From contig CAZTYW010000005.1 of NCBI GenBank assembly GCA_964617695.1, positions 1 to 57,303 of the forward strand: a stretch of DNA of 57,303 nt, in the 5' to 3' direction. Positions 1 to 55,487 of the stretch are shown here, piece by piece. The notes below the pieces were generated by a model, which did no database searches, was not told where the DNA came from, and saw only the letters and a list, made by a program, of their open reading frames with translations. The stretch's first letter is position 1. Every line of letters begins with the position of its first letter. This DNA is from an uncultured Dehalococcoidia bacterium (lineage in GTDB: Bacteria > Chloroflexota > Dehalococcoidia > UBA2247 > RBG-13-53-26). Both the position numbers and the translations under genes were made by a program.

Positions 1-571
<571 letters not shown>

Positions 572-4338: not shown

Positions 4339-5274
4339 CTATTTTTTCTGCTCTGGCGGAGCCGGGTTGACGTAACCCTTGAGCAGGGTGGGCATGGACT
4401 TCTTCACCTCTTCCCAGGTCCACTTGCCGTAGTTGTCCCAGTCCCTGCCGAACATGATTGACTCATGCGATGGTGCCCAGTAAGAGAAGCTGGCACCGGA
4501 GGCGCCAAATATGCACCCATTTATGTGGGCGGCCTCGTCACTGCACAGGAAGGCCGGAATCGTGGCCAGATAGTCTGCAGTGGCTACGTGGGTCACCTCC
4601 TCATACCGCTCCTGAGTCCAGAGCCCGGACTCAACCCTCTTCTTGTAGCCTGCCAGTACCTCGGGACCCATCGTCATCCTGGTTGCTGCCCTGGGGCAGA
4701 TGGCGTTGACGGTTATGCCGTACCTGCCCAGCTCCCAGGCGCCAGCATAGGTCAGGCTGGCTATGCCGCCCTTGGCAGCGCCGTAGTTCACGTGCCCCAC
4801 CGTGCCCACGAAGGCCTCCGAGATTGTGTTGACTATCCTGCCATATCTCTGCTCTCTCATCAACGGGGCAGCATGCCTCATGGTGTTGAACGTACCTTTG
4901 AGATGGACTGCGATAACCATGTCCCAGTCCTCTTCTGACAGGTTCCATATCATTCTGGCCCGGTCAATTCCGGCGACGTTAACCAGAATGTCGATCCTGC
5001 CGAAGTTGTCGACGCAGGCCTTGATCATCTGTTCGGCTGCGCTCCAATCGGCCACGCTGCCGTATTGTGCAATGGCCTGGGCGCCAGACTTCTTGCACTC
5101 CGCAACCGTTTCGTCGGCCAGTGTAGCACCCGAGCCTGTTCCGTCAGTGGCTCCCCCGAGGTCACAAACGACAATATTGGCGCCCTCCTCGGCAAGGGCG
5201 AGAGCCACGGCCTTACCTATGCCGCTGCCGGCGCCGGTCACTACTGCGTTCTTTCCCTTCAGTCTATCAGCCAT
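4339..5274 (-). CDS. Short-chain dehydrogenase/reductase (MFE-2/Hsd4A-like), copy 1
   Basis: TGAGSGIG, VVCDLGG, NVAGI and NYGAAK (YxxxK) motifs. Confidence 0.9.
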   Translation of the reverse strand: MADRLKGKNAVVTGAGSGIGKAVALALAEEGANIVVCDLGGATDGTGSGATLADETVAECKKSGAQAIAQYGSVADWSAAEQMIKACVDNFGRIDILVNVAGIDRARMIWNLSEEDWDMVIAVHLKGTFNTMRHAAPLMREQRYGRIVNTISEAFVGTVGHVNYGAAKGGIASLTYAGAWELGRYGITVNAICPRAATRMTMGPEVLAGYKKRVESGLWTQERYEEVTHVATADYLATIPAFLCSDEAAHINGCIFGASGASFSYWAPSHESIMFGRDWDNYGKWTWEEVKKSMPTLLKGYVNPAPPEQKK

Positions 5275-5303
5275 TCTTAAGCCTCCTTCGCGCTTGATGC
5301 CGG

Positions 5304-6254
5304 TTATTTCTTCTTCTCGTCTGGCTGTGGCGGGGATGGGTTGACATAGTTGACCAGTAGCTTCTCCGGTACGAGCTGGGCTATCTCATCAAACCGCCAC
5401 GGACCTTCCTTCTTCCAGTCCCTGGTCACCTTTGTCTCCACCGTCGGCTGAGTCCAGTGCCCCAGTTCGGTCCCCGCGACGAAGAATATCTGCCCGTTCA
5501 CGTCTGCGGCCGCCTCGCTGGCCAGATAGGCCGCGAACCCGGCAAAGTAAGAGGGATCTGCCAGTTCGTTCATCATCTTGTCGAGTTGGTCAGGCGGCAT
5601 GAGGCCGGCCTCGATTCTCTTCTTGATGCCTTCGATGACTTTGTCGTCGGCGGTCATTCTTGTCCATGCCCTTGGACAAATAGCGTTGGACGTGACGCCA
5701 TACCTGCCCATCTCGCGAGCTACGCCGTAGGTCAGGGTGGCGATACCGCCTTTGGCGGCGGCGTAGTTGAGGTGGCTGGGTCCGCCAATGAAAGCTTCGG
5801 AGACGCAGTTGATGATCCTGCCATAGCGCTGTTCCCTCATTAGAGGAGCAGCGTGCCTGATGAGATTGAACGTACCTTTCAGATGGACACCTACTACCTG
5901 GTCCCACTCCTGCTCCGACATGTTCCAGATCATCTTGGGTTTGTCGATTCCGGCGATGTTGCACAGGATATCGATCCTGCCGAATTTATCGACGCAGGCC
6001 TTCACCATGGCCTCTGCGTTAGCAAAGCTGGACACGTCGCCGTAGTGAGCAACGGCATCTGCCCCAAGCCTCTTGCATTCCGCGACTACTTCATCAGCAG
6101 GGGTCCTGTCCGTGCCCGTACCATCCACAGCCCCACCGAGATCACAGACAACGACGTTTGCTCCTTCCTCAGCAAGCGCAATTGCTATTGCCTTGCCAAT
6201 CCCCCTACCAGCACCGGTGACTACAGCGTTTCTCCCCTTCAGTTTATCGGCCAT
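5304..6254 (-). CDS. Short-chain dehydrogenase/reductase, copy 2
   Basis: TGAGRGIG and NYAAAK motifs; clearly paralogous to both neighbours. Confidence 0.9.
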   Translation of the reverse strand: MADKLKGRNAVVTGAGRGIGKAIAIALAEEGANVVVCDLGGAVDGTGTDRTPADEVVAECKRLGADAVAHYGDVSSFANAEAMVKACVDKFGRIDILCNIAGIDKPKMIWNMSEQEWDQVVGVHLKGTFNLIRHAAPLMREQRYGRIINCVSEAFIGGPSHLNYAAAKGGIATLTYGVAREMGRYGVTSNAICPRAWTRMTADDKVIEGIKKRIEAGLMPPDQLDKMMNELADPSYFAGFAAYLASEAAADVNGQIFFVAGTELGHWTQPTVETKVTRDWKKEGPWRFDEIAQLVPEKLLVNYVNPSPPQPDEKKK

Positions 6255-6394
6255 GCTCAGTCCTCCTTACTTGATGGTTTGGGTCCCAGCACGCTCAGAG
6301 CTTCGCAGCCAGGAGTCTTGCCGTACTTACCTCGCCTTCCAGTCGCCTTTTCCGCTCTGGGGTTGACCCGTGGTCAGATTGGGAACGCAACTGG

Positions 6395-7351
6395 TCAATC
6401 GATGTCTCGTTCTCCGGGTGGGGCTGGGTTGACGTAGTCTACCAGCAATTCCTGGGGCACCAGCTTCTCAATCTCGTCGATGCTCCATTTTTCGTCAATC
6501 TCCCAGTCCCTGGTGAGTTTTCTCACTATTTGTGGATGGTTCCAGATCCCGATGGTGGCTCTTGAAGTGACGAATACGCAGCCGTTGATGTCAGTGGCGG
6601 CGTCACTTGCCAGGTAGGCTATGAATGGGGCGAAGTACTCCGGGTCTGCGCCCTCCTTCCTTGTCTCATCCATTCCCTTGAGCCGCTCCTCTGATATGAG
6701 CCCAGCCTCGATCCTCTTCTGCAGTCCCGCATCCTGCGCATCGCCGACGCTGAGTCTGGTTCGTGCCCTTGGGGCGAAGGCATTGCAGGTCACCCCGTAT
6801 CTTCCCATCTCCCGGGCGATGTCATAAGTCAGACTAACGATGCCGCCTTTGGCTGCTGCATAGTTGGAATGACCCACAGTCCCGGCGTACGCCTCGGAGG
6901 TGCAGTTTATTATCCTGCCGTATCTCTGCTGCTTCATCTCCACGCAGGCATGCCGGCACAGGTTCCAGGTCCCCTTGAGGTGAACAGCCAGCACCTTGTC
7001 CCATTCATCTTCAGTCATGTTGAAGATCATCCTGGGCCTCAGAATGCCGGCTATGTTGCACAGAATGTCTATTCTGCCGAAGCTATTGACACAGGTCCGG
7101 ATCATGTCTTCGGCAGCGGCAAAGCTGGACACATCCCCGTAGTGGGGGACTGCTTTGACTCCCAGCCTGCGACATTCCTCAACAGTGGCATCCGCAGGTG
7201 AAGCGTCTGCCCCGGACCCGTCCATTGACCCGCCCAGGTCGCAGACCACGATGTTGGCGCCTTCTTCAGCCAGTGCCAGAGCGACAGCCTTGCCGATACC
7301 CCTGCCAGCGCCGGTCACTACGGCATTCCTGCCTCTTAACCTGTCCCCCAA
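6395..7351 (-). CDS. Short-chain dehydrogenase/reductase, copy 3
   Basis: TGAGRGIG and NYAAAK motifs; shares the C-terminal YVNPAPP. Confidence 0.9.
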   Translation of the reverse strand: MGDRLRGRNAVVTGAGRGIGKAVALALAEEGANIVVCDLGGSMDGSGADASPADATVEECRRLGVKAVPHYGDVSSFAAAEDMIRTCVNSFGRIDILCNIAGILRPRMIFNMTEDEWDKVLAVHLKGTWNLCRHACVEMKQQRYGRIINCTSEAYAGTVGHSNYAAAKGGIVSLTYDIAREMGRYGVTCNAFAPRARTRLSVGDAQDAGLQKRIEAGLISEERLKGMDETRKEGADPEYFAPFIAYLASDAATDINGCVFVTSRATIGIWNHPQIVRKLTRDWEIDEKWSIDEIEKLVPQELLVDYVNPAPPGERDID

Positions 7352-33934: not shown

Positions 33935-34022
33935 ACAGCAGCAGCCCAGCCATCATAGCCTGTCGGCCTTAGACCCGTGGCTTTGCGCCCCCTGATTTGT
34001 CAGGGTTTGCCCTTTTCACCGT
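33935..34022 (-). ncRNA. Cyclic di-GMP-I (GEMM) riboswitch
   Basis: Minus strand AAGGGCAAACCCTGACAAATCAGGGGGCGCAAAGCCACGGGTCTAAGGCCGACAGGCTATGATGGCTGGGCTGC shows the GGCAAAC, GCAAAGC and CTAA...TATG receptor motifs. Ends approximate. Confidence 0.88.
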
Positions 34023-45843: not shown

Positions 45844-47205
45844 ATGACTAGGGTGGAAGTATTGATAATCGGGGCAGGCACAGCGGGCGAGTATGCCGCC
45901 GGCACAGCTAAACAGTTTGTTGACTCTGTAGGCATGATCGAAAAAGGCCCCGTTGGTGGTGAGTGCATCTTCCATGCCTGTATTCCCACCAAGGCACTGG
46001 TCCATGCAGCACGGACATACAAGAAGATGAGAGGTGCCGGCTTTTTCGGGCTACCCACGATCCAAGAAGAGGCAAATTATGCGGATGTGAAAGCCTTCAA
46101 GGACAAAATCGTCAGCGGGATAGGCACGGGCAGAGACCAGAGATGGATCGACCGGGGCATAAAGTTGTTCCGAGGTAGTGCGTATTTTCGGTCTCCAAAT
46201 GAGGTGGCGGTTGCTGATGAAGTTATTCAGGCAGACAAAATCATAGTTGCGACTGGATCTGTGCCAGCGGTACCACCGATACCCGGACTACGGGAGGCAG
46301 GATACATCACCAATATCGAAGCTCTGGATCTAGAAAGTGCACCCGAAAGGCTAGCTATAATCGGAGGCGGACCGATAGGGGTTGAGTTTGCCAACATATT
46401 CGCCGCATTTGGTTCAGAAGTTCATATCTACGAGGCTCTGGATCGAATTCTCGCTGGGGAAGATGAGGAGGTATCACAGGTTGTGGCACAGCTATTTGCC
46501 AAACAGGGCATCTCAGTCTCAACTTCTGTTTTGGTCAGCGAGGTGCGCGCCACAGGTGCCGGCAGATTGGTGATCGCCAAGAGTGCGGATGGTGAAGAGA
46601 GAAGGGAGGAGTATGATCAAATACTCGTGGCTACGGGGAGAAGGCCAGGTCTAGATGATCTCAAACTTGCGGCTGCCGGAATAGAATACACGAGAAAGGG
46701 GATCAGTGTTGACGCCGCCCTACGAACCAACCTGCCACACATATGGGCGGCTGGAGACGTGACAGGAGGATTCCTGTTCACGTATGTCGCCGGTGAGCAA
46801 GGCAAAACCGCTGTGGCAAACGCTGTTGGCGGCAAGCGGACAGAATTGAACTACGAGGTGCTTCCTCGGGCTACATTCTGCGATCCGGAGGTGGCCAGTG
46901 TCGGTCTGACTGAGAAACAGGCGCAGGCCCATGGCTACCAGGTCAAAATTGGCAAGTTCGAGTATGCCAACCTCACGCGGCCTGTTGAGGCGGATGAAAC
47001 GGATGGATTTATCAAGATCGTGGCTGATTCGAGTTCAGGACGAATCTTGGGAGGTCATATAGTGGGGGCTGAGGCGTCAAGTCTGATTCATGAGGTTGCT
47101 GTCGCTATGGCAGGCAAAGTGGCGGCGTCTGACGTAGGAAACATGCTTCATTCGTACCCCACGCTCTCCGAAGGGGTGCGCTACGCTTGTCAGGCTATTG
47201 CATAA
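45844..47205 (+). CDS. Class I pyridine nucleotide-disulfide oxidoreductase (Lpd/MerA-like, no C-terminal Cys pair)
   Basis: GAGTAG, GGECIFHACIP redox disulfide, GGGPIG, AAGD and HSYPTLSE motifs. Confidence 0.9.
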   Translation: MTRVEVLIIGAGTAGEYAAGTAKQFVDSVGMIEKGPVGGECIFHACIPTKALVHAARTYKKMRGAGFFGLPTIQEEANYADVKAFKDKIVSGIGTGRDQRWIDRGIKLFRGSAYFRSPNEVAVADEVIQADKIIVATGSVPAVPPIPGLREAGYITNIEALDLESAPERLAIIGGGPIGVEFANIFAAFGSEVHIYEALDRILAGEDEEVSQVVAQLFAKQGISVSTSVLVSEVRATGAGRLVIAKSADGEERREEYDQILVATGRRPGLDDLKLAAAGIEYTRKGISVDAALRTNLPHIWAAGDVTGGFLFTYVAGEQGKTAVANAVGGKRTELNYEVLPRATFCDPEVASVGLTEKQAQAHGYQVKIGKFEYANLTRPVEADETDGFIKIVADSSSGRILGGHIVGAEASSLIHEVAVAMAGKVAASDVGNMLHSYPTLSEGVRYACQAIA

Positions 47206-47413: not shown

Positions 47414-48175
47414 ATGATAAGAGCGTTTCTCTTTGACCTAGACGGTACACTCGTGCAGACGGAGAAGCTGAAGGCTTCATCCTATGCAATTGCCGTCCAG
47501 CGCCTTCTCCGACTCTCGGAGCCTGACGTGAGAGCCATCGAAGCCTATCGGGAAATAGTAGGAGCTTCCAGAGACGTCGCTTCCCGCCATATCATGGAAA
47601 GACTGAAACTGGAGAGTGACCTGCGCCCGCTGATGGAACAGCATCAGGTCTCGGAGCCGTGGGAAGTGCTGACGGCTATGAGGATGGCCATCTACGCAGA
47701 GATGGTGGCTGCCCCGAAGGTTATTCAGGACCACAAGTGGCCCTACACTGTTGATTTGCTCCAGGTCGTCAAGGAGAAGAATTGCCTGACCGCTCTGGTA
47801 ACCATGTCACGAAAAAGAGAGGCGCTGCACGTCCTGGATTCGCTTGGCATCGAAAATTTGCTGGACGTGATAGTCACCGCTGAGGATATCAAACAAGCGA
47901 AGCCCGACCCTGAGCCGTATCTTGTGGCTGCTGCAAAGCTCGGGGTGCTACCTGAAGATTGCCTGGTTCTGGAAGATTCGGTCAACGGAGTCCGGGCAGC
48001 GAAAGCGGCTGGCATGAATGTGGTGGCCATTGCCACTCCTTTCACCAATGCTGGTCTCCATACGGAGGACGTGATAGAGGATGCCTGGATTGTCCACGAA
48101 CCCGAAATGCTGGCTGCAACGGTGAGGCACCGAATTGAGGAACATGAGGGACATCGCTCTGGTGACACCCTGTAG
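47414..48175 (+). CDS. HAD-family phosphatase (beta-phosphoglucomutase-like)
   Basis: FDLDGTLV, KPDPEPY and LEDSVNG motifs. Confidence 0.88.
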   Translation: MIRAFLFDLDGTLVQTEKLKASSYAIAVQRLLRLSEPDVRAIEAYREIVGASRDVASRHIMERLKLESDLRPLMEQHQVSEPWEVLTAMRMAIYAEMVAAPKVIQDHKWPYTVDLLQVVKEKNCLTALVTMSRKREALHVLDSLGIENLLDVIVTAEDIKQAKPDPEPYLVAAAKLGVLPEDCLVLEDSVNGVRAAKAAGMNVVAIATPFTNAGLHTEDVIEDAWIVHEPEMLAATVRHRIEEHEGHRSGDTL

Positions 48176-48399: not shown

Positions 48400-49815
48400 A
48401 TGGTCGAGACCTACGACCTGGCTATTATTGGTGGCGGCTCGGCTGGGCTGACCGCCGGTGCGTTTGCTGTTCAACTCGGCGCACGTGTTGTCCTGTTGGA
48501 GAAGCATCGCCTGGGCGGCGACTGCACCTGGACTGGCTGTGTGCCAAGCAAAGCGCTGCTCAAAGTGGCCAGAGTAGCCCATCAGACGCGCACCGCGGAC
48601 CGCTACGGCATGAGTCCCAACGAGCCAAAGGTAGACCTGAAATCCGTGATGGGCCACGTCAAATCAGTCATAAGCGAGGTGTACCAGCAAGAATCGCCCG
48701 AAGTGCTGCGTGCTGAAGGGATAAACGTCATCCTCGACACCGCCCGCTTCCTTGATGCCCACACTCTGGCTGTTGGCGATGCCACGCTGAAGGCTGACAA
48801 GGTATTGCTGGCTACCGGCGCGCATCCTTTCATACCCCCCATTGAGGGTCTGGACAGAGTGGACTATTTGACCTATGAGACTATATGGGATCTGGAAGCT
48901 CTGCCCCAACACCTGCTGGTGCTTGGCGCGGGACCGATCGGCTGTGAAATGGCTCAGGCATTCAGCCGGCTCGGTTCACAGGTTACGCTGATAGAAGGCG
49001 AAGAAAGGGTTCTGCCTCGCGAGGAGCCAGAAGCGGCCTTCGTACTAGCTGCAGTTCTTGGTGCCGAAGGCATGGACTTGCGGCTGAGTGCCAAGGCTGA
49101 ACGGGTATGGCAGGATTCAGCCGGAATTCACCTGGTGGCCGGTGGCGACGAGCTGTTGGGCGACTCGCTACTGGTTGCCATTGGCCGCCGCGCTACCGTA
49201 GATAACCTTGGCCTGGAGAAGGCTGGAGTGGCATACGATGCCAAGGGAATCAAGGTGGACCCGCATCTGCGCACCAGCCAGAAGCACATCTATGCCGCCG
49301 GCGACTGCACTGGTGGCTACCAGTTCACCCACTATGCCGGCTGGCAGGGTTTCATGGCCGTGCGCAATGCCCTTCTCCCCGGAGCTTCCAAGGGGGTCAC
49401 CGACCATGTGCCCTGGACGACCTTCACCGACCCAGAAGTAGCTCACGTTGGACTGACCGAGGCGGAAGCCCGAGAGCGGTTTGGCGACTCTGCAACCACA
49501 TGTGACTGGTCCATGAAGCGGGTGGATCGTGCTCAGGCTGAAGGAGATACAGCCGGGTTTGTCAAACTGATTCACAAGACAGACGGAACATTCTTGGGTG
49601 CCACCATCGTTGCCGGCCAGGCCGGAGAGATGGTTCAAGAGTGGGTCTTGGCTTTGGAGCACAGCCTGAAGGTGGGCGACCTCGCCGGCGTCATTCATGT
49701 CTACCCAACCTACTCCACCGCCAGCATGCAGGCTGCTGCTGCCATCCGTGTGAATCAATGGTTGACCAGTAAATCCGGTCGGGCTGTTCGAGGCCTGGCT
49801 TCTCTGATGAGATGA
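48400..49815 (+). CDS. Class I pyridine nucleotide-disulfide oxidoreductase (MerA-like, no C-terminal Cys pair)
   Basis: GGGSAG, GGDCTWTGCVPSK, GAGPIG and HVYPTYS motifs. Confidence 0.9.
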   Translation: MVETYDLAIIGGGSAGLTAGAFAVQLGARVVLLEKHRLGGDCTWTGCVPSKALLKVARVAHQTRTADRYGMSPNEPKVDLKSVMGHVKSVISEVYQQESPEVLRAEGINVILDTARFLDAHTLAVGDATLKADKVLLATGAHPFIPPIEGLDRVDYLTYETIWDLEALPQHLLVLGAGPIGCEMAQAFSRLGSQVTLIEGEERVLPREEPEAAFVLAAVLGAEGMDLRLSAKAERVWQDSAGIHLVAGGDELLGDSLLVAIGRRATVDNLGLEKAGVAYDAKGIKVDPHLRTSQKHIYAAGDCTGGYQFTHYAGWQGFMAVRNALLPGASKGVTDHVPWTTFTDPEVAHVGLTEAEARERFGDSATTCDWSMKRVDRAQAEGDTAGFVKLIHKTDGTFLGATIVAGQAGEMVQEWVLALEHSLKVGDLAGVIHVYPTYSTASMQAAAAIRVNQWLTSKSGRAVRGLASLMR

Positions 49816-49827
49816 AAGGAGAAGATA

Positions 49828-51252
49828 TTGGCGACCTACAGCAGACAGGCAGTTCGGAACCACGTCTTCTATGAGGTCACGCGCAGTCTGTGTCCCGAAT
49901 GTCGACAGGTGATAGATGCCCAGGTGCTCATTCGCGATGGTGCTGTCTATCTGCGCAAGTATTGTCAGAACCATGGCTGGCATGAAGCCCTGTTGTCCTC
50001 TGATGCGGAATGGTACCTGAGCTCGCTCAAGTATAACAAGCCGGGGGCCATCCCCTACGACTTTGCCACGTCGGTCAGAGAGGGCTGTCCCTTCGACTGT
50101 GGCCTATGCCCTGAGCATCAGCAGCACACGTGCATCGGTATTGTTGAGATCACCGGACGATGCAATCTGCGTTGCCCTACCTGTTTTGCAGATGCTGGTG
50201 AAGGTCCCGACGTCAGCCTGCCCCAAGTCCAAAGGATGCTCGCCAGGCTGAGTGAAACAGAGGGCCGTCCGGAAGTCGTGCAGATCAGTGGCGGCGAACC
50301 GACCATTCACCCGCAGTTGCTGGATATCCTGGGTGCTGCCAAGGCGGGAGGCTTTTCCCTGGTGTTGCTCAACACCAACGGGCTACGGCTGGCTGAAGAG
50401 CCCGACTTTGTCCGCCAACTGGCCAGCTACCGGCTAGCTGCATACCTCCAGTTCGATGGGGTCACGGCTCAAACCTACAAGACGCTCCGCGGCCGCGACC
50501 TGCGTGCCATCAAACAGCAGGCACTCGACCGCCTGGCCGAGGCCGGGCTTTATGCCATACTGGTTGCCACCATAGTCAAAGGTGTGAATGACGGCGAGAT
50601 CGGCGACATTCTGCGCTACGGATTAGAACACCCAGTTGTGCTCGGCGTGAACTACCAGCCTGTCACCTATGCTGGCCGCTGTCTGGGTCATCATGACCCG
50701 CTCCACCGCGTCACAGTACCCGACGTGCTTCATGCCCTGGAAGTGCAAACAGAGGGTCTATTCCAGGTCAGCGACTTCCGGCCGCTGCCGTGTCCCCACC
50801 CCAGTTGTTCGGCCTGCACCGTCGCTTTTCTGGATGGGCAACAGGTGATTCCCATCCCACGCGTCATAAATGTGGATGACTATCTGGATTTTCTCACTAA
50901 CAGCGCTGGGCCGGAGGTGTTTGCTGAACTTGCTACATCGCTGGAAGAGCTGTGGAGCATGGCAGCGGTAATGGGCAGCAGCAAAACTATGGATGCCCTG
51001 AACTGCGTCGCCTGCGGCATGGACATGGCGCTTCCCTCCAATCTCAGCCTGTCGCCCGAGAATTTCTTTATCATCCAGGTTCATGGCTTCATGGATGAGC
51101 ATACCTTCGACCTCAAGCGACTGATGAAGTGCTGCGTACACGAGTTCCTACCGGATGGCCGGGCGGTGCCGTTCTGCGCCTATAACAACCTGGGCTACCG
51201 GGAGCGCATGAAGCAAGGGCAGGGGCCGAAAGTTGAACAACAGGACAGATGA
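49828..51252 (+). CDS. Radical SAM enzyme, Tes/GDGT-MAS (MJ0619-like) family
   Basis: N-terminal CPEC...CQNH, CPFDCGLCPEH, CNLRCPTC (CxxxCxxC), SGGEPT, NTNG, YLQFDG, C-terminal CPHPSC, FMD...CCVH and PFCAYN. Confidence 0.9.
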   Translation: MATYSRQAVRNHVFYEVTRSLCPECRQVIDAQVLIRDGAVYLRKYCQNHGWHEALLSSDAEWYLSSLKYNKPGAIPYDFATSVREGCPFDCGLCPEHQQHTCIGIVEITGRCNLRCPTCFADAGEGPDVSLPQVQRMLARLSETEGRPEVVQISGGEPTIHPQLLDILGAAKAGGFSLVLLNTNGLRLAEEPDFVRQLASYRLAAYLQFDGVTAQTYKTLRGRDLRAIKQQALDRLAEAGLYAILVATIVKGVNDGEIGDILRYGLEHPVVLGVNYQPVTYAGRCLGHHDPLHRVTVPDVLHALEVQTEGLFQVSDFRPLPCPHPSCSACTVAFLDGQQVIPIPRVINVDDYLDFLTNSAGPEVFAELATSLEELWSMAAVMGSSKTMDALNCVACGMDMALPSNLSLSPENFFIIQVHGFMDEHTFDLKRLMKCCVHEFLPDGRAVPFCAYNNLGYRERMKQGQGPKVEQQDR

Positions 51253-52030
51253 TCAGCAGATCAACGTCTGCTGCGCCACTTTCTACGAGAGCGACGTCGT
51301 CCGGATACTGCTTGGCGACGTGCTGCACCCCGGTGGCCTGGCGCTGACTCATCGTTTGGGGGAGGTGGTGGGACTGAGTGAGAAGGATCGCGTACTCGAT
51401 GTCGCCTGTGGTCGTGGTGCATCAGCCGTCTACCTCGCACGATCATTTGGCTGCCACGTCACCGGAGTGGATTATGGCCCGCAGAACGTTGCCGCAGCTG
51501 AAGCACACGGGCGCGACCAGCGTATGGCCCAGCTGACCTCTTTCCGACTCGGTGATGCTGAAGGGCTGCCCTTCGACGATGGCACTTTCGACGTGCTGAT
51601 TTCCGAGTGCAGCTTCTGTACTTTCCCAAACAAGAGGATGGCTGCCGCGGAGATGGCACGGGTGCTTTCCACGCGCGGGCGGCTTGGCCTGACCGACATG
51701 ACCGTCAACGGGCCACTGCCTGATGACATCCAGTCTCTTCTGGCCTGGGTTGCCTGTGTGGCTGGAGCTGGAACCCCTTCTGATTACCAGTCGGTGCTTG
51801 AGGGCGCCGGATTTGATGGTGTAGTCGTGGAGGATCACAGGGCCGCTTTGTTGGATATGGTGAATCGAGTGCGCCGCAAGCTGTTGGCTGTAGAGCTGGC
51901 CGCCGGCCTAGGCAAGCTCGACCTGGGGGATATTGACCTCAGCGTGGCCAAGAGCCTAGCACGCCGCGCCCTTGAGCTGATCGAGGGGCGGGTGGCGGGC
52001 TATACACTCATCGCAGCGAAAAAAGTGTGA
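51233..52030 (+). CDS. Class I SAM-dependent methyltransferase with ArsM-like cysteines
   Basis: HPGG, LDVACGRG and GDAEGLPF motifs; Cys motifs VCCA, ISECSFC and WVACVAGA. Overlaps the radical SAM stop. Confidence 0.88.
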   Translation: MNNRTDDQQINVCCATFYESDVVRILLGDVLHPGGLALTHRLGEVVGLSEKDRVLDVACGRGASAVYLARSFGCHVTGVDYGPQNVAAAEAHGRDQRMAQLTSFRLGDAEGLPFDDGTFDVLISECSFCTFPNKRMAAAEMARVLSTRGRLGLTDMTVNGPLPDDIQSLLAWVACVAGAGTPSDYQSVLEGAGFDGVVVEDHRAALLDMVNRVRRKLLAVELAAGLGKLDLGDIDLSVAKSLARRALELIEGRVAGYTLIAAKKV

Positions 52031-52188
52031 GCAGAAGTGGCTCATTTCTCGATTTCGGCTCTAAGATAGCAGGTTTGAAGGTGAGGGTTCTAGGCGAGCA
52101 TGCGTTGGAAATGTTGAAAACGGCCCCCAATGGCAGGCCTGGCTGTCACATTCTGGGTGCATTGCTACGGCGTGGGTGGAAGTCGTTT

Positions 52189-53018
52189 ATGGACAAGGCG
52201 CTGGAAGTTTGGTGGGTGTTGCCGGCTGCCATTGGCATTGCCACCATCGCACTATCCAGCGGCATCAGTGGGGCGCTGTTCTTCAGTCCCTTCTTTCTTT
52301 TGGCAGTGGGCCTTGAGCCCGCTCAGGCGATCGGTGCCGGGCTAATCACTGAATTGTTCGGCACGACCTCCGGCATTTTCAACTATATTCGCCAGCGCGT
52401 TATTGACTACCAGACTGTGCGATTCTTAGCGGCCGCTGCTGTACCTGCTGCCGTTGCTGGAGCATTCCTGGCACACAGAGTCGAGGCGGGGATTCTGCAA
52501 ATCGTTTTCGGGACGGCGCTGCTGGTACTGGCAGCGATAGTCCTATACCATAGCGCCCAGAAGGGCAAGCCCCCGACCGGGAGAATCCTGGATCAGGCAA
52601 GGAACATGACGGTCATCCAGGCCAGCGATGGTAATACATACTCATATCGTACATGCAATCGCTCTATCGGGGTCCCATTGGCTGGCGTAGGTGGGCTGCT
52701 GACCGGGCTGATGACCGCAGGGCTGCCAGAAATCACTACTACCCAGCTTATGCTGCGTTGTCGGATACCACCCCGGGTTGCTGTGGCCACTGCCATCTTT
52801 GTTCTTACCGTGACGGTCTTTTTTGCTGCTGGAGTTCATGCCCTGACTGCTGAACCAGCGTGGTACGTCGTTGTCTGGTCTATACCGGGAGTCATCATAG
52901 GGGCTCAATAGCCCCCAGGCTTGAGGGCAAGGTACCTCCGGCCATTGCAGAGCGGGTTCTGGGAGTCCTTTTCCTTGGCATAGGAGTGCTGGTGGTTGTG
53001 ATGCAGGTTAGAGGCTAG
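52189..53018 (+). pseudogene. TauE/SafE (TSUP) exporter with a 1-bp frameshift near the 3' end
   Basis: SSGISGALFFSP, AVATA and WSIPGVIIGAQ, then TAG at 52909. Shifting frame at 52905-52908 restores IAPRLEGKVPPAIAERVLGVLFLGIGVLVVVMQVRG* ending at 53018. Confidence 0.8.
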
Positions 53019-54500: not shown

Positions 54501-55487
54501 ATGAAAGAGATCAGGCGAGAGTTCGGCGTAGTGGGTCTGGGGCGTATGGGGGCAAACCTTTCTCTCCAGGCCCTGGAGAAAGGCATGCGAGTAGTTGGTT
54601 TCGACATCAAAGGAGTCCCGGAGGAACTAACAAACGCAGGCATGGTGAGCATCGATAGCCTCAGCGGTTTTCGTGAACAGTTGTCGCCCCCACGACCGAT
54701 TTTAGTCTACATACCGGCCGGACCTATTGTTGACAGGGTCATAGATGACCTCGTCCCACATCTGGAAAGAGGCGATGTTGTTGTAGACAGCGGCAACTCC
54801 TATTGGGGCGACTCCATTCGTCGCTATCGCAGACTTCGGGACAGGCAGCTCCAATTCGTGGACCTAGGAACCAGCGGGGGCGTCGAAGGTGCACGCCACG
54901 GTGCATGCTTTATGGTTGGCGGTGATAGAGAACCTGTTGCCCGTATTGAGCCATTACTGCTGGAGCTTGCCACTCCTGGCGGCTACGTTCATGCTGGACC
55001 GCCCGGTGCCGGACATTTCACGAAGCTTGTCCACAACGGAATCGAGTTCGGAATGCTACAGGCAATTGGCGAGGGCATCGACCTTTTGGAGAAATACAAA
55101 GATACCGTCAACATTCCCGAGGTCCTCAGTTGCTGGCGTCATGGTTCGGTCATTCGTTCATGGTTGATTGACCTGATAGAAGCGGCGTACAGGGCCGAAG
55201 GAGGGCTTGAGAAGATTCCGGCGTATGTTGAGGATACGGGAGAGGTCAACTGGCTGGTAAACGACGCACTACACATGGAGGTGCCAATACCGGTGATTTC
55301 TCAGTCTGTAATGCAGCTTTTTGCCTCTCGCGATGACCGGAAGAACTGGGCTCGAGCCATAGCTATGATGCGCCACGGATTTGGGGGACACCCATACGGC
55401 AGGGACGAGTCTATAGTCCGGGAGCGGCAGGAGGGACGGATTGGCGACTTCCTTCGCAGCGGATTTGAGAAAGACAAACAAGAGTGA
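54501..55487 (+). CDS. gnd: Short-type decarboxylating 6-phosphogluconate dehydrogenase
   Basis: GLGRMG, DSGNS, GTSGG, KLVHNGIEFG and AMMRHGFGGH motifs. Confidence 0.9.
   Translation: MKEIRREFGVVGLGRMGANLSLQALEKGMRVVGFDIKGVPEELTNAGMVSIDSLSGFREQLSPPRPILVYIPAGPIVDRVIDDLVPHLERGDVVVDSGNSYWGDSIRRYRRLRDRQLQFVDLGTSGGVEGARHGACFMVGGDREPVARIEPLLLELATPGGYVHAGPPGAGHFTKLVHNGIEFGMLQAIGEGIDLLEKYKDTVNIPEVLSCWRHGSVIRSWLIDLIEAAYRAEGGLEKIPAYVEDTGEVNWLVNDALHMEVPIPVISQSVMQLFASRDDRKNWARAIAMMRHGFGGHPYGRDESIVRERQEGRIGDFLRSGFEKDKQE

Follow-up and report, generated by a model that had tools for sequence, protein, structure and literature searches.

A MerA-like flavoprotein, a Tes/TrsS-type radical SAM enzyme and an ArsM-motif methyltransferase form a recurrent gene module in Chloroflexota

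Introduction

To our knowledge, the Tes family of radical S-adenosylmethionine (SAM) enzymes has a single known reaction, the sp3–sp3 carbon–carbon coupling of archaeal lipid tails. Here we describe an operon-like module in which a bacterial relative of Tes is encoded between a flavoprotein reductase resembling mercuric reductase (MerA), hereafter PNDR2, and a cysteine-rich methyltransferase. It lies at positions 48400-52030 of a 57,303-nucleotide stretch of DNA from an uncultured Dehalococcoidia bacterium, which we refer to as the window and which is contig C5 of a 1.95-Mb metagenome-assembled genome (MAG) that is 89.5% complete. The new element is the combination: a MerA-like flavoprotein, a radical SAM enzyme of the Tes/TrsS type and a methyltransferase with the motifs of ArsM.

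Bacterial Tes homologues have been proposed as synthases of brGDGTs (branched glycerol dialkyl glycerol tetraethers), a proposal that is untested, and halobacterial homologues occur in strains that make no GDGT (Zeng et al., PMC8941075). A Black Sea study, which likewise calls the role untested, counted 111 Chloroflexota MAGs through their Tes homologues (PMC11868695), and homologues in bacterial MAGs serve more widely to infer the makers of brGDGTs, which are palaeothermometer lipids. In the literature consulted, which includes a 2026 review of lipid-modifying radical SAM enzymes, no bacterial Tes homologue partnered by a methyltransferase is listed as characterised.

Results

Gene order and junctions

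Four genes are co-oriented on the + strand, in the order reductase, radical SAM enzyme, methyltransferase and TSUP permease; an initial annotation of the window had recognized the four and their shared orientation, listing the radical SAM gene first.

48400..49815, + strand: PNDR2, a class I flavoprotein pyridine-nucleotide oxidoreductase, 471 aa, with Pyr_redox_2 and Pyr_redox_dim domains; Pfam and NCBIfam matches, the latter all under their equivalog cut-offs
49816..49827, + strand: spacer between the PNDR2 and radical SAM genes, 12 nt, read directly from the sequence
49828..51252, + strand: radical SAM enzyme of the Tes/TrsS superfamily, 474 aa, TTG start, with Zn_ribbon_HMPTM and Radical_SAM domains
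51233..52030, + strand: cysteine-rich class I SAM methyltransferase, 265 aa, TTG start, DVU_1556-like and ArsM-like
52189..53018, + strand: TSUP/TauE permease (PF01925), frameshifted near 52905-52911; the called open reading frame (ORF) is 52027-52911

Both tight junctions of that annotation are borne out. The 12-nt spacer, AAGGAGAAGATA, carries a perfect ribosome-binding site (AAGGAG) 6 nt ahead of the TTG start of the radical SAM gene, and the radical SAM and methyltransferase ORFs share 20 nt. The three core genes, together about 3.6 kb (48400-52030), are one operon-like module, and its genes in the window contain no internal stops. Upstream of the operon no riboswitch or other RNA element reaches the Rfam gathering thresholds, and sigma-70-type promoters, terminators and operator-like inverted repeats near it do not rise above shuffled expectation.

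Conservation and distribution of the three-gene unit

Co-occurrence of the three core genes had been set beforehand as a check, and they are indeed found together across dozens of genomes. In a close clade of 22 genome loci, whose radical SAM enzymes are 62-79% identical, PNDR2 (58-76% identical) is encoded directly upstream of the radical SAM gene in 20 of 21 loci with a contig that extends far enough, and the methyltransferase directly downstream in 20 of 22. A Chloroflexota sister clade at about 50% identity has the radical SAM gene followed by the methyltransferase gene in every one of its 15 loci, with a PNDR2-type gene at most 5 kb away in 8/15; for loci of this clade that have no adjacent reductase, such a gene is present elsewhere in the genome in 6/8. 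Independent gene calls and Pfam labels give the same gene order on further contigs. A Hydrothermarchaeales archaeon and a Thermoleophilia bacterium likewise carry the radical SAM–methyltransferase pair. In a tree built from 100 homologues the methyltransferase-linked enzymes group together: an adjacent methyltransferase, scored as a label, takes 3 changes against a shuffle mean of 30.8 (0 of 500 shuffles as low), and methyltransferase adjacency is thus far beyond chance.

The distribution among the relatives of the host is sparse. The nearest relative bearing the module is an uncultured Dehalococcoidia bacterium; among 30 related genomes only one (G012) carries the triad, in the same order, and the other 29 lack all three genes (best identities of 40% to PNDR2 and 45% to the radical SAM enzyme), so that the module is present in 2 of 31 related genomes. 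Triad co-occurrence is therefore perfect among these relatives and its distribution is patchy, probably through horizontal spread. Within Chloroflexota the module moves as a unit, and we conclude that PNDR2, the radical SAM enzyme and the methyltransferase act together.

Two variations on the gene order were also seen. An ORF of 92-96 aa without a Pfam match lies between PNDR2 and the radical SAM gene in the close loci L110 (5719-5997) and L116 (5588-5878) and is absent from the window. In the Hydrothermarchaeales archaeon (L022:10138-11082) the gene directly after that of the methyltransferase encodes another radical SAM protein, which carries a DUF3463 domain, an architecture that we take to be HpnH-like.

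The radical SAM enzyme

The radical SAM enzyme matches the structure of the archaeal synthase GDGT-MAS (PDB 7TOL) with an E-value of 1e-83. The cofactor motifs of GDGT-MAS comprise a rubredoxin-type CX2CX20CX2H, a CX3CX2C for the [4Fe-4S]N cluster, the radical SAM CX3CX2C and the ligands of a C-terminal cluster (PMC9433317). All four are kept in the module enzyme, as C22x2C25x20C46x2H49, C87x3C91x2C94, the radical SAM C112x3C116x2C119, and C327/C435/C450 for [4Fe-4S]C, and an alignment-based map of cysteines by clade shows them to be invariant in its clade. The methyltransferase-linked clade has four additional invariant cysteines, C102, C322, C393 and C396, which archaeal Tes lacks and which would be enough for another cluster or a soft-metal site.

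Despite the shared motifs, the enzyme scores 362.6 bits with the Tes model NF045702, below the cut-off of 450, whereas a true archaeal Tes taken as control (L069) reaches 684.5. With the TrsS model NF045646, which aligns over its full length, it scores 380.8 against a cut-off of 490, its relation to TrsS being judged from hidden Markov model scores alone. The enzyme accordingly stands outside any characterised clade, which was the second check set by the initial annotation, and its core pairing with the methyltransferase represents a branch of the Tes/TrsS superfamily that carries no name. C396, C435 and C450 are missing from the second large bacterial branch of Tes homologues (L027-L079), which includes Paenibacillus, Pedobacter, Bradyrhizobium and Massilia. 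Upstream of its radical SAM gene, the methyltransferase-free bacterial branch has a conserved gene for an Lgt-like membrane protein of the prolipoprotein diacylglyceryl transferase family in 33 of 50 loci. The membrane-lipid signal therefore lies in that branch, where the Tes homologue and the Lgt-like protein are a separate, lipid-flavoured and uncharacterised pair.

If the module remodelled membrane lipids, its radical SAM enzyme would be a bacterial tetraether or membrane-spanning lipid synthase that joins tails as in brGDGTs, the methyltransferase would add the branches and the flavoprotein would give electrons. The intact cofactor motifs and the strength of the match to 7TOL agree with this, as do the two papers that propose a brGDGT role for bacterial homologues (PMC8941075, PMC11868695). 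We nevertheless consider it unlikely, given the sub-threshold Tes score, the lack of any recurrent lipid-synthesis gene across more than 45 neighbourhoods, the assignment of the Lgt-like partner to the methyltransferase-free clade and a spread of the module too patchy for a core membrane trait. The partner enzyme fits poorly as well, being a soluble, cysteine-rich methyltransferase of class I, and enzymes of this class cannot methylate saturated carbon.

The curated families that score best for the two core genes lead in another direction. TrsS reportedly goes back to Haft & Tolstoy (2025, mSystems), to whom a review attributes it, and NCBIfam curators have already named the sister pair of TrsS (NF045646) and the DVU_1556 methyltransferase (NF045667), which is catalogued and uncharacterised. 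The initial annotation's proposal of a new pathway thus holds in that the module is uncharacterised, but the pairing at its core is not wholly new. By analogy with what is suspected for the true TrsS cassette found alongside Mo/W oxidoreductases in anaerobes, the module might serve the maturation of a protein or metallocofactor, and the match of both core genes to these two families speaks for such a role. The cassette models considered were NF045646 with NF045667, NF045666, NF045669 and NF045645. In the host genome, at its 89.5% completeness, the best match to the DVU_1553 ligase reaches 92.8 against a cut-off of 300, and the DVU_1555 C_GCAxxG_C_C and DVU_1557 mini-protein families have zero matches, although the absence of NF045645 is weak evidence because that search matched no control genome either. 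As no Mo/W oxidoreductase recurs beside the module, a maturation role appears highly improbable.

The methyltransferase

The best curated model for the methyltransferase is NF045667, at 133.8 bits against a cut-off of 155, and with the ArsM model NF008823 it scores 106.2 against 263, which places it outside the ArsM equivalog. Its cysteines are strongly conserved, C13, C14, C126 and C175 being invariant in 23 sequences and C129 and C74 nearly so. In an alignment to the host's own ArsM (33% identity), C126 falls on the cysteine of ISNC and C175 on that of AACVGG, which we take to be the two As(III) ligands of ArsM/AS3MT (equivalent to C174 and C224 of CmArsM). The 'GCG' loop of ArsM (GCGN, before motif I), which holds the Cys72-type cysteine, is replaced by HPGG. 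An AlphaFold2 model (pLDDT 84.5) finds its closest folds in AtmM/RebM, phosphoethanolamine N-methyltransferases, TleD, MitM and sarcosine/dimethylglycine methyltransferase. Because the fold search ranks these other methyltransferases, 'ArsM-like', the initial label of the gene, is apt for the cysteine constellation and not for the fold as a whole.

A library clustered at 50% identity yields 508 representatives of the family at E ≤ 1e-30. In one of these, a metagenomic protein of 599 aa (P0232), the methyltransferase keeps the N-terminal CC, C126 and C175 and is fused to a GTPase domain of the CobW/COG0523 metallochaperones that contains a GGCFCC motif. Among the best 150 family representatives, fusions of a radical SAM domain to the methyltransferase were absent, and the fusions seen were this CobW fusion and a tandem methyltransferase.

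Selenocysteine was considered for the module and ruled out, as the sole in-frame stop in any homologue is a TAG and not a TGA. This codon, at about position 9779 of L003, replaces the Glu immediately before the invariant Cys126 of a methyltransferase homologue and probably arose by nonsense mutation or through an error in sequencing.

The flavoprotein reductase

The best PDB match of PNDR2 is the mercuric reductase 5X1Y, at 262 bits. PNDR2 shares with MerA a CxxxxC redox-active disulfide (C42-TWTG-C47, in the motif GGDCTWTGCVPSK) and a tyrosine at the histidine position of disulfide reductases: its IHVYPTYS stands in place of their HxHPTxSE, with Tyr435 for the catalytic His and no Glu after it. 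Both motifs are invariant in the family, being shared by clades A and B as well as locus L026. It nonetheless falls short of the MerA model TIGR02053 (373.2 bits against a cut-off of 454), lacks an NmerA domain, and ends in a conserved basic tail (...GLASLMR) without a cysteine pair, whereas true MerA proteins encoded near L013, L096 and L098 end in SCCxE. We liken it to MerA relatives without C-terminal cysteines, such as RclA.

Because PNDR2 has no His-Glu dyad, a classical disulfide-reductase role is not the obvious one. This tempers the initial proposal that the flavoprotein recycles the thiols of the methyltransferase, which remains one option; from its motifs, a MerA- or RclA-like reduction of small oxidised species would be equally likely.

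Genomic context

Three further genes flank the module in the window.

45844..47205, + strand: PNDR1, a second flavoprotein reductase paralogue, with motifs GGECIFHACIPTK and HSYPTLSEG
47414..48175, + strand: HAD-family phosphatase, beta-phosphoglucomutase-like, a recurrent neighbour with a sugar-phosphate link
54501..55487, + strand: 6-phosphogluconate dehydrogenase (NF007161, 353 bits against a cut-off of 271)

PNDR1 recurs beside the module in the close clade (L001, L114 and L115), and in L115 the HAD phosphatase gene follows the methyltransferase gene. The recurrent neighbours include glucose-6-phosphate dehydrogenase, 6-phosphogluconolactonase, 6-phosphogluconate dehydrogenase, glucose dehydrogenase, GH15, transketolase and a second PNDR, and pentose-phosphate genes flank the module in L001, L003, L008, L010, L016, L023, L115 and L116. 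About 11 loci have a gene for AhpC-TSA_2, which frequently stands immediately upstream of PNDR2, and L112 carries a rhodanese, two sulfite-oxidase-family proteins and rubrerythrins. Together the neighbours point to NADPH supply and thiol stress rather than to ars genes.

Enrichment of heavy-metal genes was also considered. True MerA genes with those of ArsR, HMA or P-type ATPase proteins lie near 3 of 41 loci (L013, L096 and L098), which is suggestive and not conserved.

The same neighbourhoods weigh on an arsenic-specific organoarsenical pathway, in which the radical SAM enzyme would form a C–As bond on a lipid or small molecule and the ArsM-like enzyme would methylate the arsenic. The conserved As(III)-binding cysteine pair of the methyltransferase and the presence of NCBIfam ArsM-type models among its top matches are in keeping with this reading, and there are precedents for radical SAM enzymes with ArsM (bioRxiv 10.1101/2024.02.01.577332). 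In L014, moreover, the gene directly downstream of the methyltransferase (5067-6572) encodes a fusion of an LMW-PTP/ArsC-like domain with a phosphate-transporter domain of the PHO4/PiT type. That fusion contains, however, the single ArsC-like domain in 41 related loci, none of which has acr3 or a canonical arsM, and the window is free of ars genes, as had been noted at the outset. The HPGG in place of the 'GCG' cysteine and the failure of ArsM to rank in the fold search also count against arsenic, as does a recurrent context of NADPH and peroxiredoxin genes in place of ars genes. A separate, bona fide arsM (323.8 bits against 263), directly followed by an Acr3-type arsenite efflux gene, is found on contig C40 (1014-2971), so the host has ordinary arsenic detoxification elsewhere. 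The arsenic link drawn initially is thereby weakened, and we regard a dedicated arsenic pathway as rather improbable. In several related genomes the orthologue of this arsM has one in-frame TGA and may be a selenoprotein ArsM.

Another reading of the neighbours is the biosynthesis and recycling of a new low-molecular-weight thiol, selenol or redox cofactor, for which the radical SAM enzyme would insert S or Se, the methyltransferase would methylate N or S, and PNDR2 would act as its dedicated NADPH reductase feeding AhpC-TSA_2. Such a cofactor would suit the AhpC-TSA_2 gene upstream of PNDR2, the pentose-phosphate and glucose-oxidising enzymes around the module, the sulfur and rubrerythrin genes of L112 and the recurrence of TSUP, and the methyltransferase fold resembles betaine-forming N-methyltransferases. 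Tes chemistry itself runs through a C–S(cluster) intermediate (PMC9433317, PMC13459092). The host also uses selenium: its gene for SelD (selenophosphate synthetase; contig C75:7979-8902) has one in-frame TGA, from which we infer the use of selenocysteine; the 24 tRNAs that aragorn identifies in the incomplete MAG do not include a tRNA-Sec. Yet PNDR2 is without the His-Glu dyad of glutathione-, mycothione- and trypanothione-type disulfide reductases, one would not expect a main cellular thiol to be so patchily distributed, and the pentose-phosphate link is confined to one clade; a cofactor of this kind has in our view only a small chance of being the product.

The TSUP gene and other features of the window

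The TSUP gene (PF01925 at 102.1 bits against a gathering threshold of 32.6) had been counted as a member of the module, which the data do not bear out. Alignment to intact homologues places its true start at the ATG at 52189, 158 nt past the end of the methyltransferase gene, and it is therefore not coupled to that gene. A two-frame tblastn match to the intact L014 homologue reveals a one-base frameshift near GCTCAATAGCC (~52908), either an assembly error or the mark of a pseudogene, beyond which the last ~35 residues are encoded in another frame (from ~52908 to 53018); the continuation of the C terminus in that frame accounts for an end coordinate of 53018. TSUP is close to the module in about six loci (L008, L011, L014, L016, L114 and the window), and in L011 and L114 it takes the place of the methyltransferase directly after the radical SAM gene. 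It is an occasional accessory outside the core.

Elsewhere in the window, a bacterial 16S rRNA gene runs off the window start and is represented by its 5' third at positions 1-571 (- strand). A c-di-GMP-I riboswitch aptamer at 33937-34021 (- strand) exceeds its gathering score of 35 with 73.8 bits. Three tandem paralogues of 311-318 aa with near-identical, short-chain-dehydrogenase-like N termini (MADxLKGxNAVVTGAG...) occupy 4339-7351 (- strand), and two small ORFs of MaoC-like size come after them.

Discussion

Proposed function

We infer the substrate, heteroatom and reaction of the module from sequence, and propose the following scheme. The radical SAM enzyme would take hydrogen from an unactivated carbon, as Tes does, and the carbon radical would then be captured on a soft heteroatom instead of being joined to a second lipid tail. 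This heteroatom could be sulfur or a persulfide, selenium, tellurium or arsenic, held on a cluster sulfide or on C102/C322/C393/C396. The methyltransferase would next bind the heteroatom with thiolates of the ArsM type (C126 and C175 together with the N-terminal CC) and methylate it, and PNDR2 would use NADPH, which in many genomes could be supplied by the adjacent pentose-phosphate genes, to reduce whatever oxidised heteroatom species or enzyme disulfides arise in the course of a cycle.

Two features carry this proposal. That the Tes cofactors have been retained speaks for the abstraction of hydrogen from an unactivated carbon and for capture of the radical at an Fe–S or thiolate site, and the combination of a thiol-rich methyltransferase with a MerA-like NADPH enzyme speaks for a soft heteroatom that undergoes reduction, thiolate binding and methylation. 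In its general form, in which radical carbon–heteroatom chemistry precedes methylation on a soft atom bound by thiols, we hold the scheme tentatively, as plausible but somewhat short of probable. Its fully specified form, in which NADPH drives the formation of a carbon–heteroatom bond on an unactivated carbon by a Tes-type radical/Fe–S mechanism before methylation on ArsM-type thiolates, is doubtful. As to the atom concerned, the genomic context favours thiol and oxidative-stress chemistry and the enzyme motifs favour a metalloid.

Several observations pull against carbon–heteroatom chemistry of this kind. The intact Tes cofactor set is equally compatible with true lipid C–C coupling. The modelled global fold of the methyltransferase is closest to RebM/AtmM and to the phosphoethanolamine and sarcosine/dimethylglycine N-methyltransferases, with ArsM not among the top 50 structural matches, and its conserved cysteines could instead bind Zn or an Fe–S cluster, or dock the radical SAM partner. 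In two close genomes (L004 and L011) and a metagenome contig (L114), the radical SAM gene has no orthologous methyltransferase at its side, and none is found anywhere in the L011 and L004 genomes, both of which are MAGs and possibly incomplete; methylation may be dispensable, or the MAGs with a lone radical SAM gene may be incomplete. The pentose-phosphate context, finally, does not extend beyond the close clade, where it may reflect inherited synteny.

Implications for bacterial Tes homologues

A different reaction probably lies behind a large bacterial branch of Tes homologues whose genes are tied to those of a thiol-rich methyltransferase and a reductase resembling MerA. If carbon–heteroatom chemistry is indeed what the module performs, it could explain how arsenolipid-type compounds of alkyl-arsenic or alkyl-selenium are made, or how Chloroflexota make a new methylated thiol or selenol cofactor, and many of the 'bacterial Tes homologues' counted as brGDGT genes would not be lipid synthases. 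Should the methyltransferase-linked branch not be a lipid synthase, brGDGT inferences need to be split by clade, for which there are two practical markers, an adjacent methyltransferase gene and the cysteine signature C102/C322/C393/C396.

Comparison with known systems

Tes/GDGT-MAS (MJ0619; PDB 7TOL/7TOM; NF045702) shares with the module enzyme its superfamily, its domain order and all four cofactor motifs. The module enzyme differs in its bacterial host, its four extra invariant cysteines and its sub-cut-off score, and in adjoining a cysteine-rich methyltransferase and a MerA-like flavoprotein. The TrsS system, in which a radical SAM (seleno)protein is paired with a DVU_1556-family methyltransferase (NF045646, NF045667), provides the best-scoring curated families for both core genes and the same pairing, but both scores lie under their cut-offs (380.8 against 490 and 133.8 against 155), and in the module a MerA-like flavoprotein replaces the cassette partners and selenocysteine is absent.

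In the ArsS/ArsM (arsenosugar) and ArsL/ArsM (arsinothricin) systems a radical SAM enzyme is likewise followed by a thiol-dependent methyltransferase acting on a heteroatom; ArsS and ArsL, however, are members of different radical SAM families and use pieces of SAM itself as the transferred group, whereas the module enzyme is of the Tes type. ArsM/AS3MT (NF008823) is, like the module methyltransferase, a class I enzyme with two As(III)-binding cysteines and an N-terminal cysteine pair, from which the latter is set apart by the missing 'GCG' cysteine, the missing ars context and a fold nearer to the RebM, phosphoethanolamine and sarcosine/dimethylglycine methyltransferase type. MerA, lastly, has in common with PNDR2 the FAD/NAD(P)H fold, the CxxxxC disulfide and the tyrosine in place of the catalytic His, while in place of the C-terminal cysteine pair and NmerA domain of MerA, PNDR2 carries its conserved basic tail.

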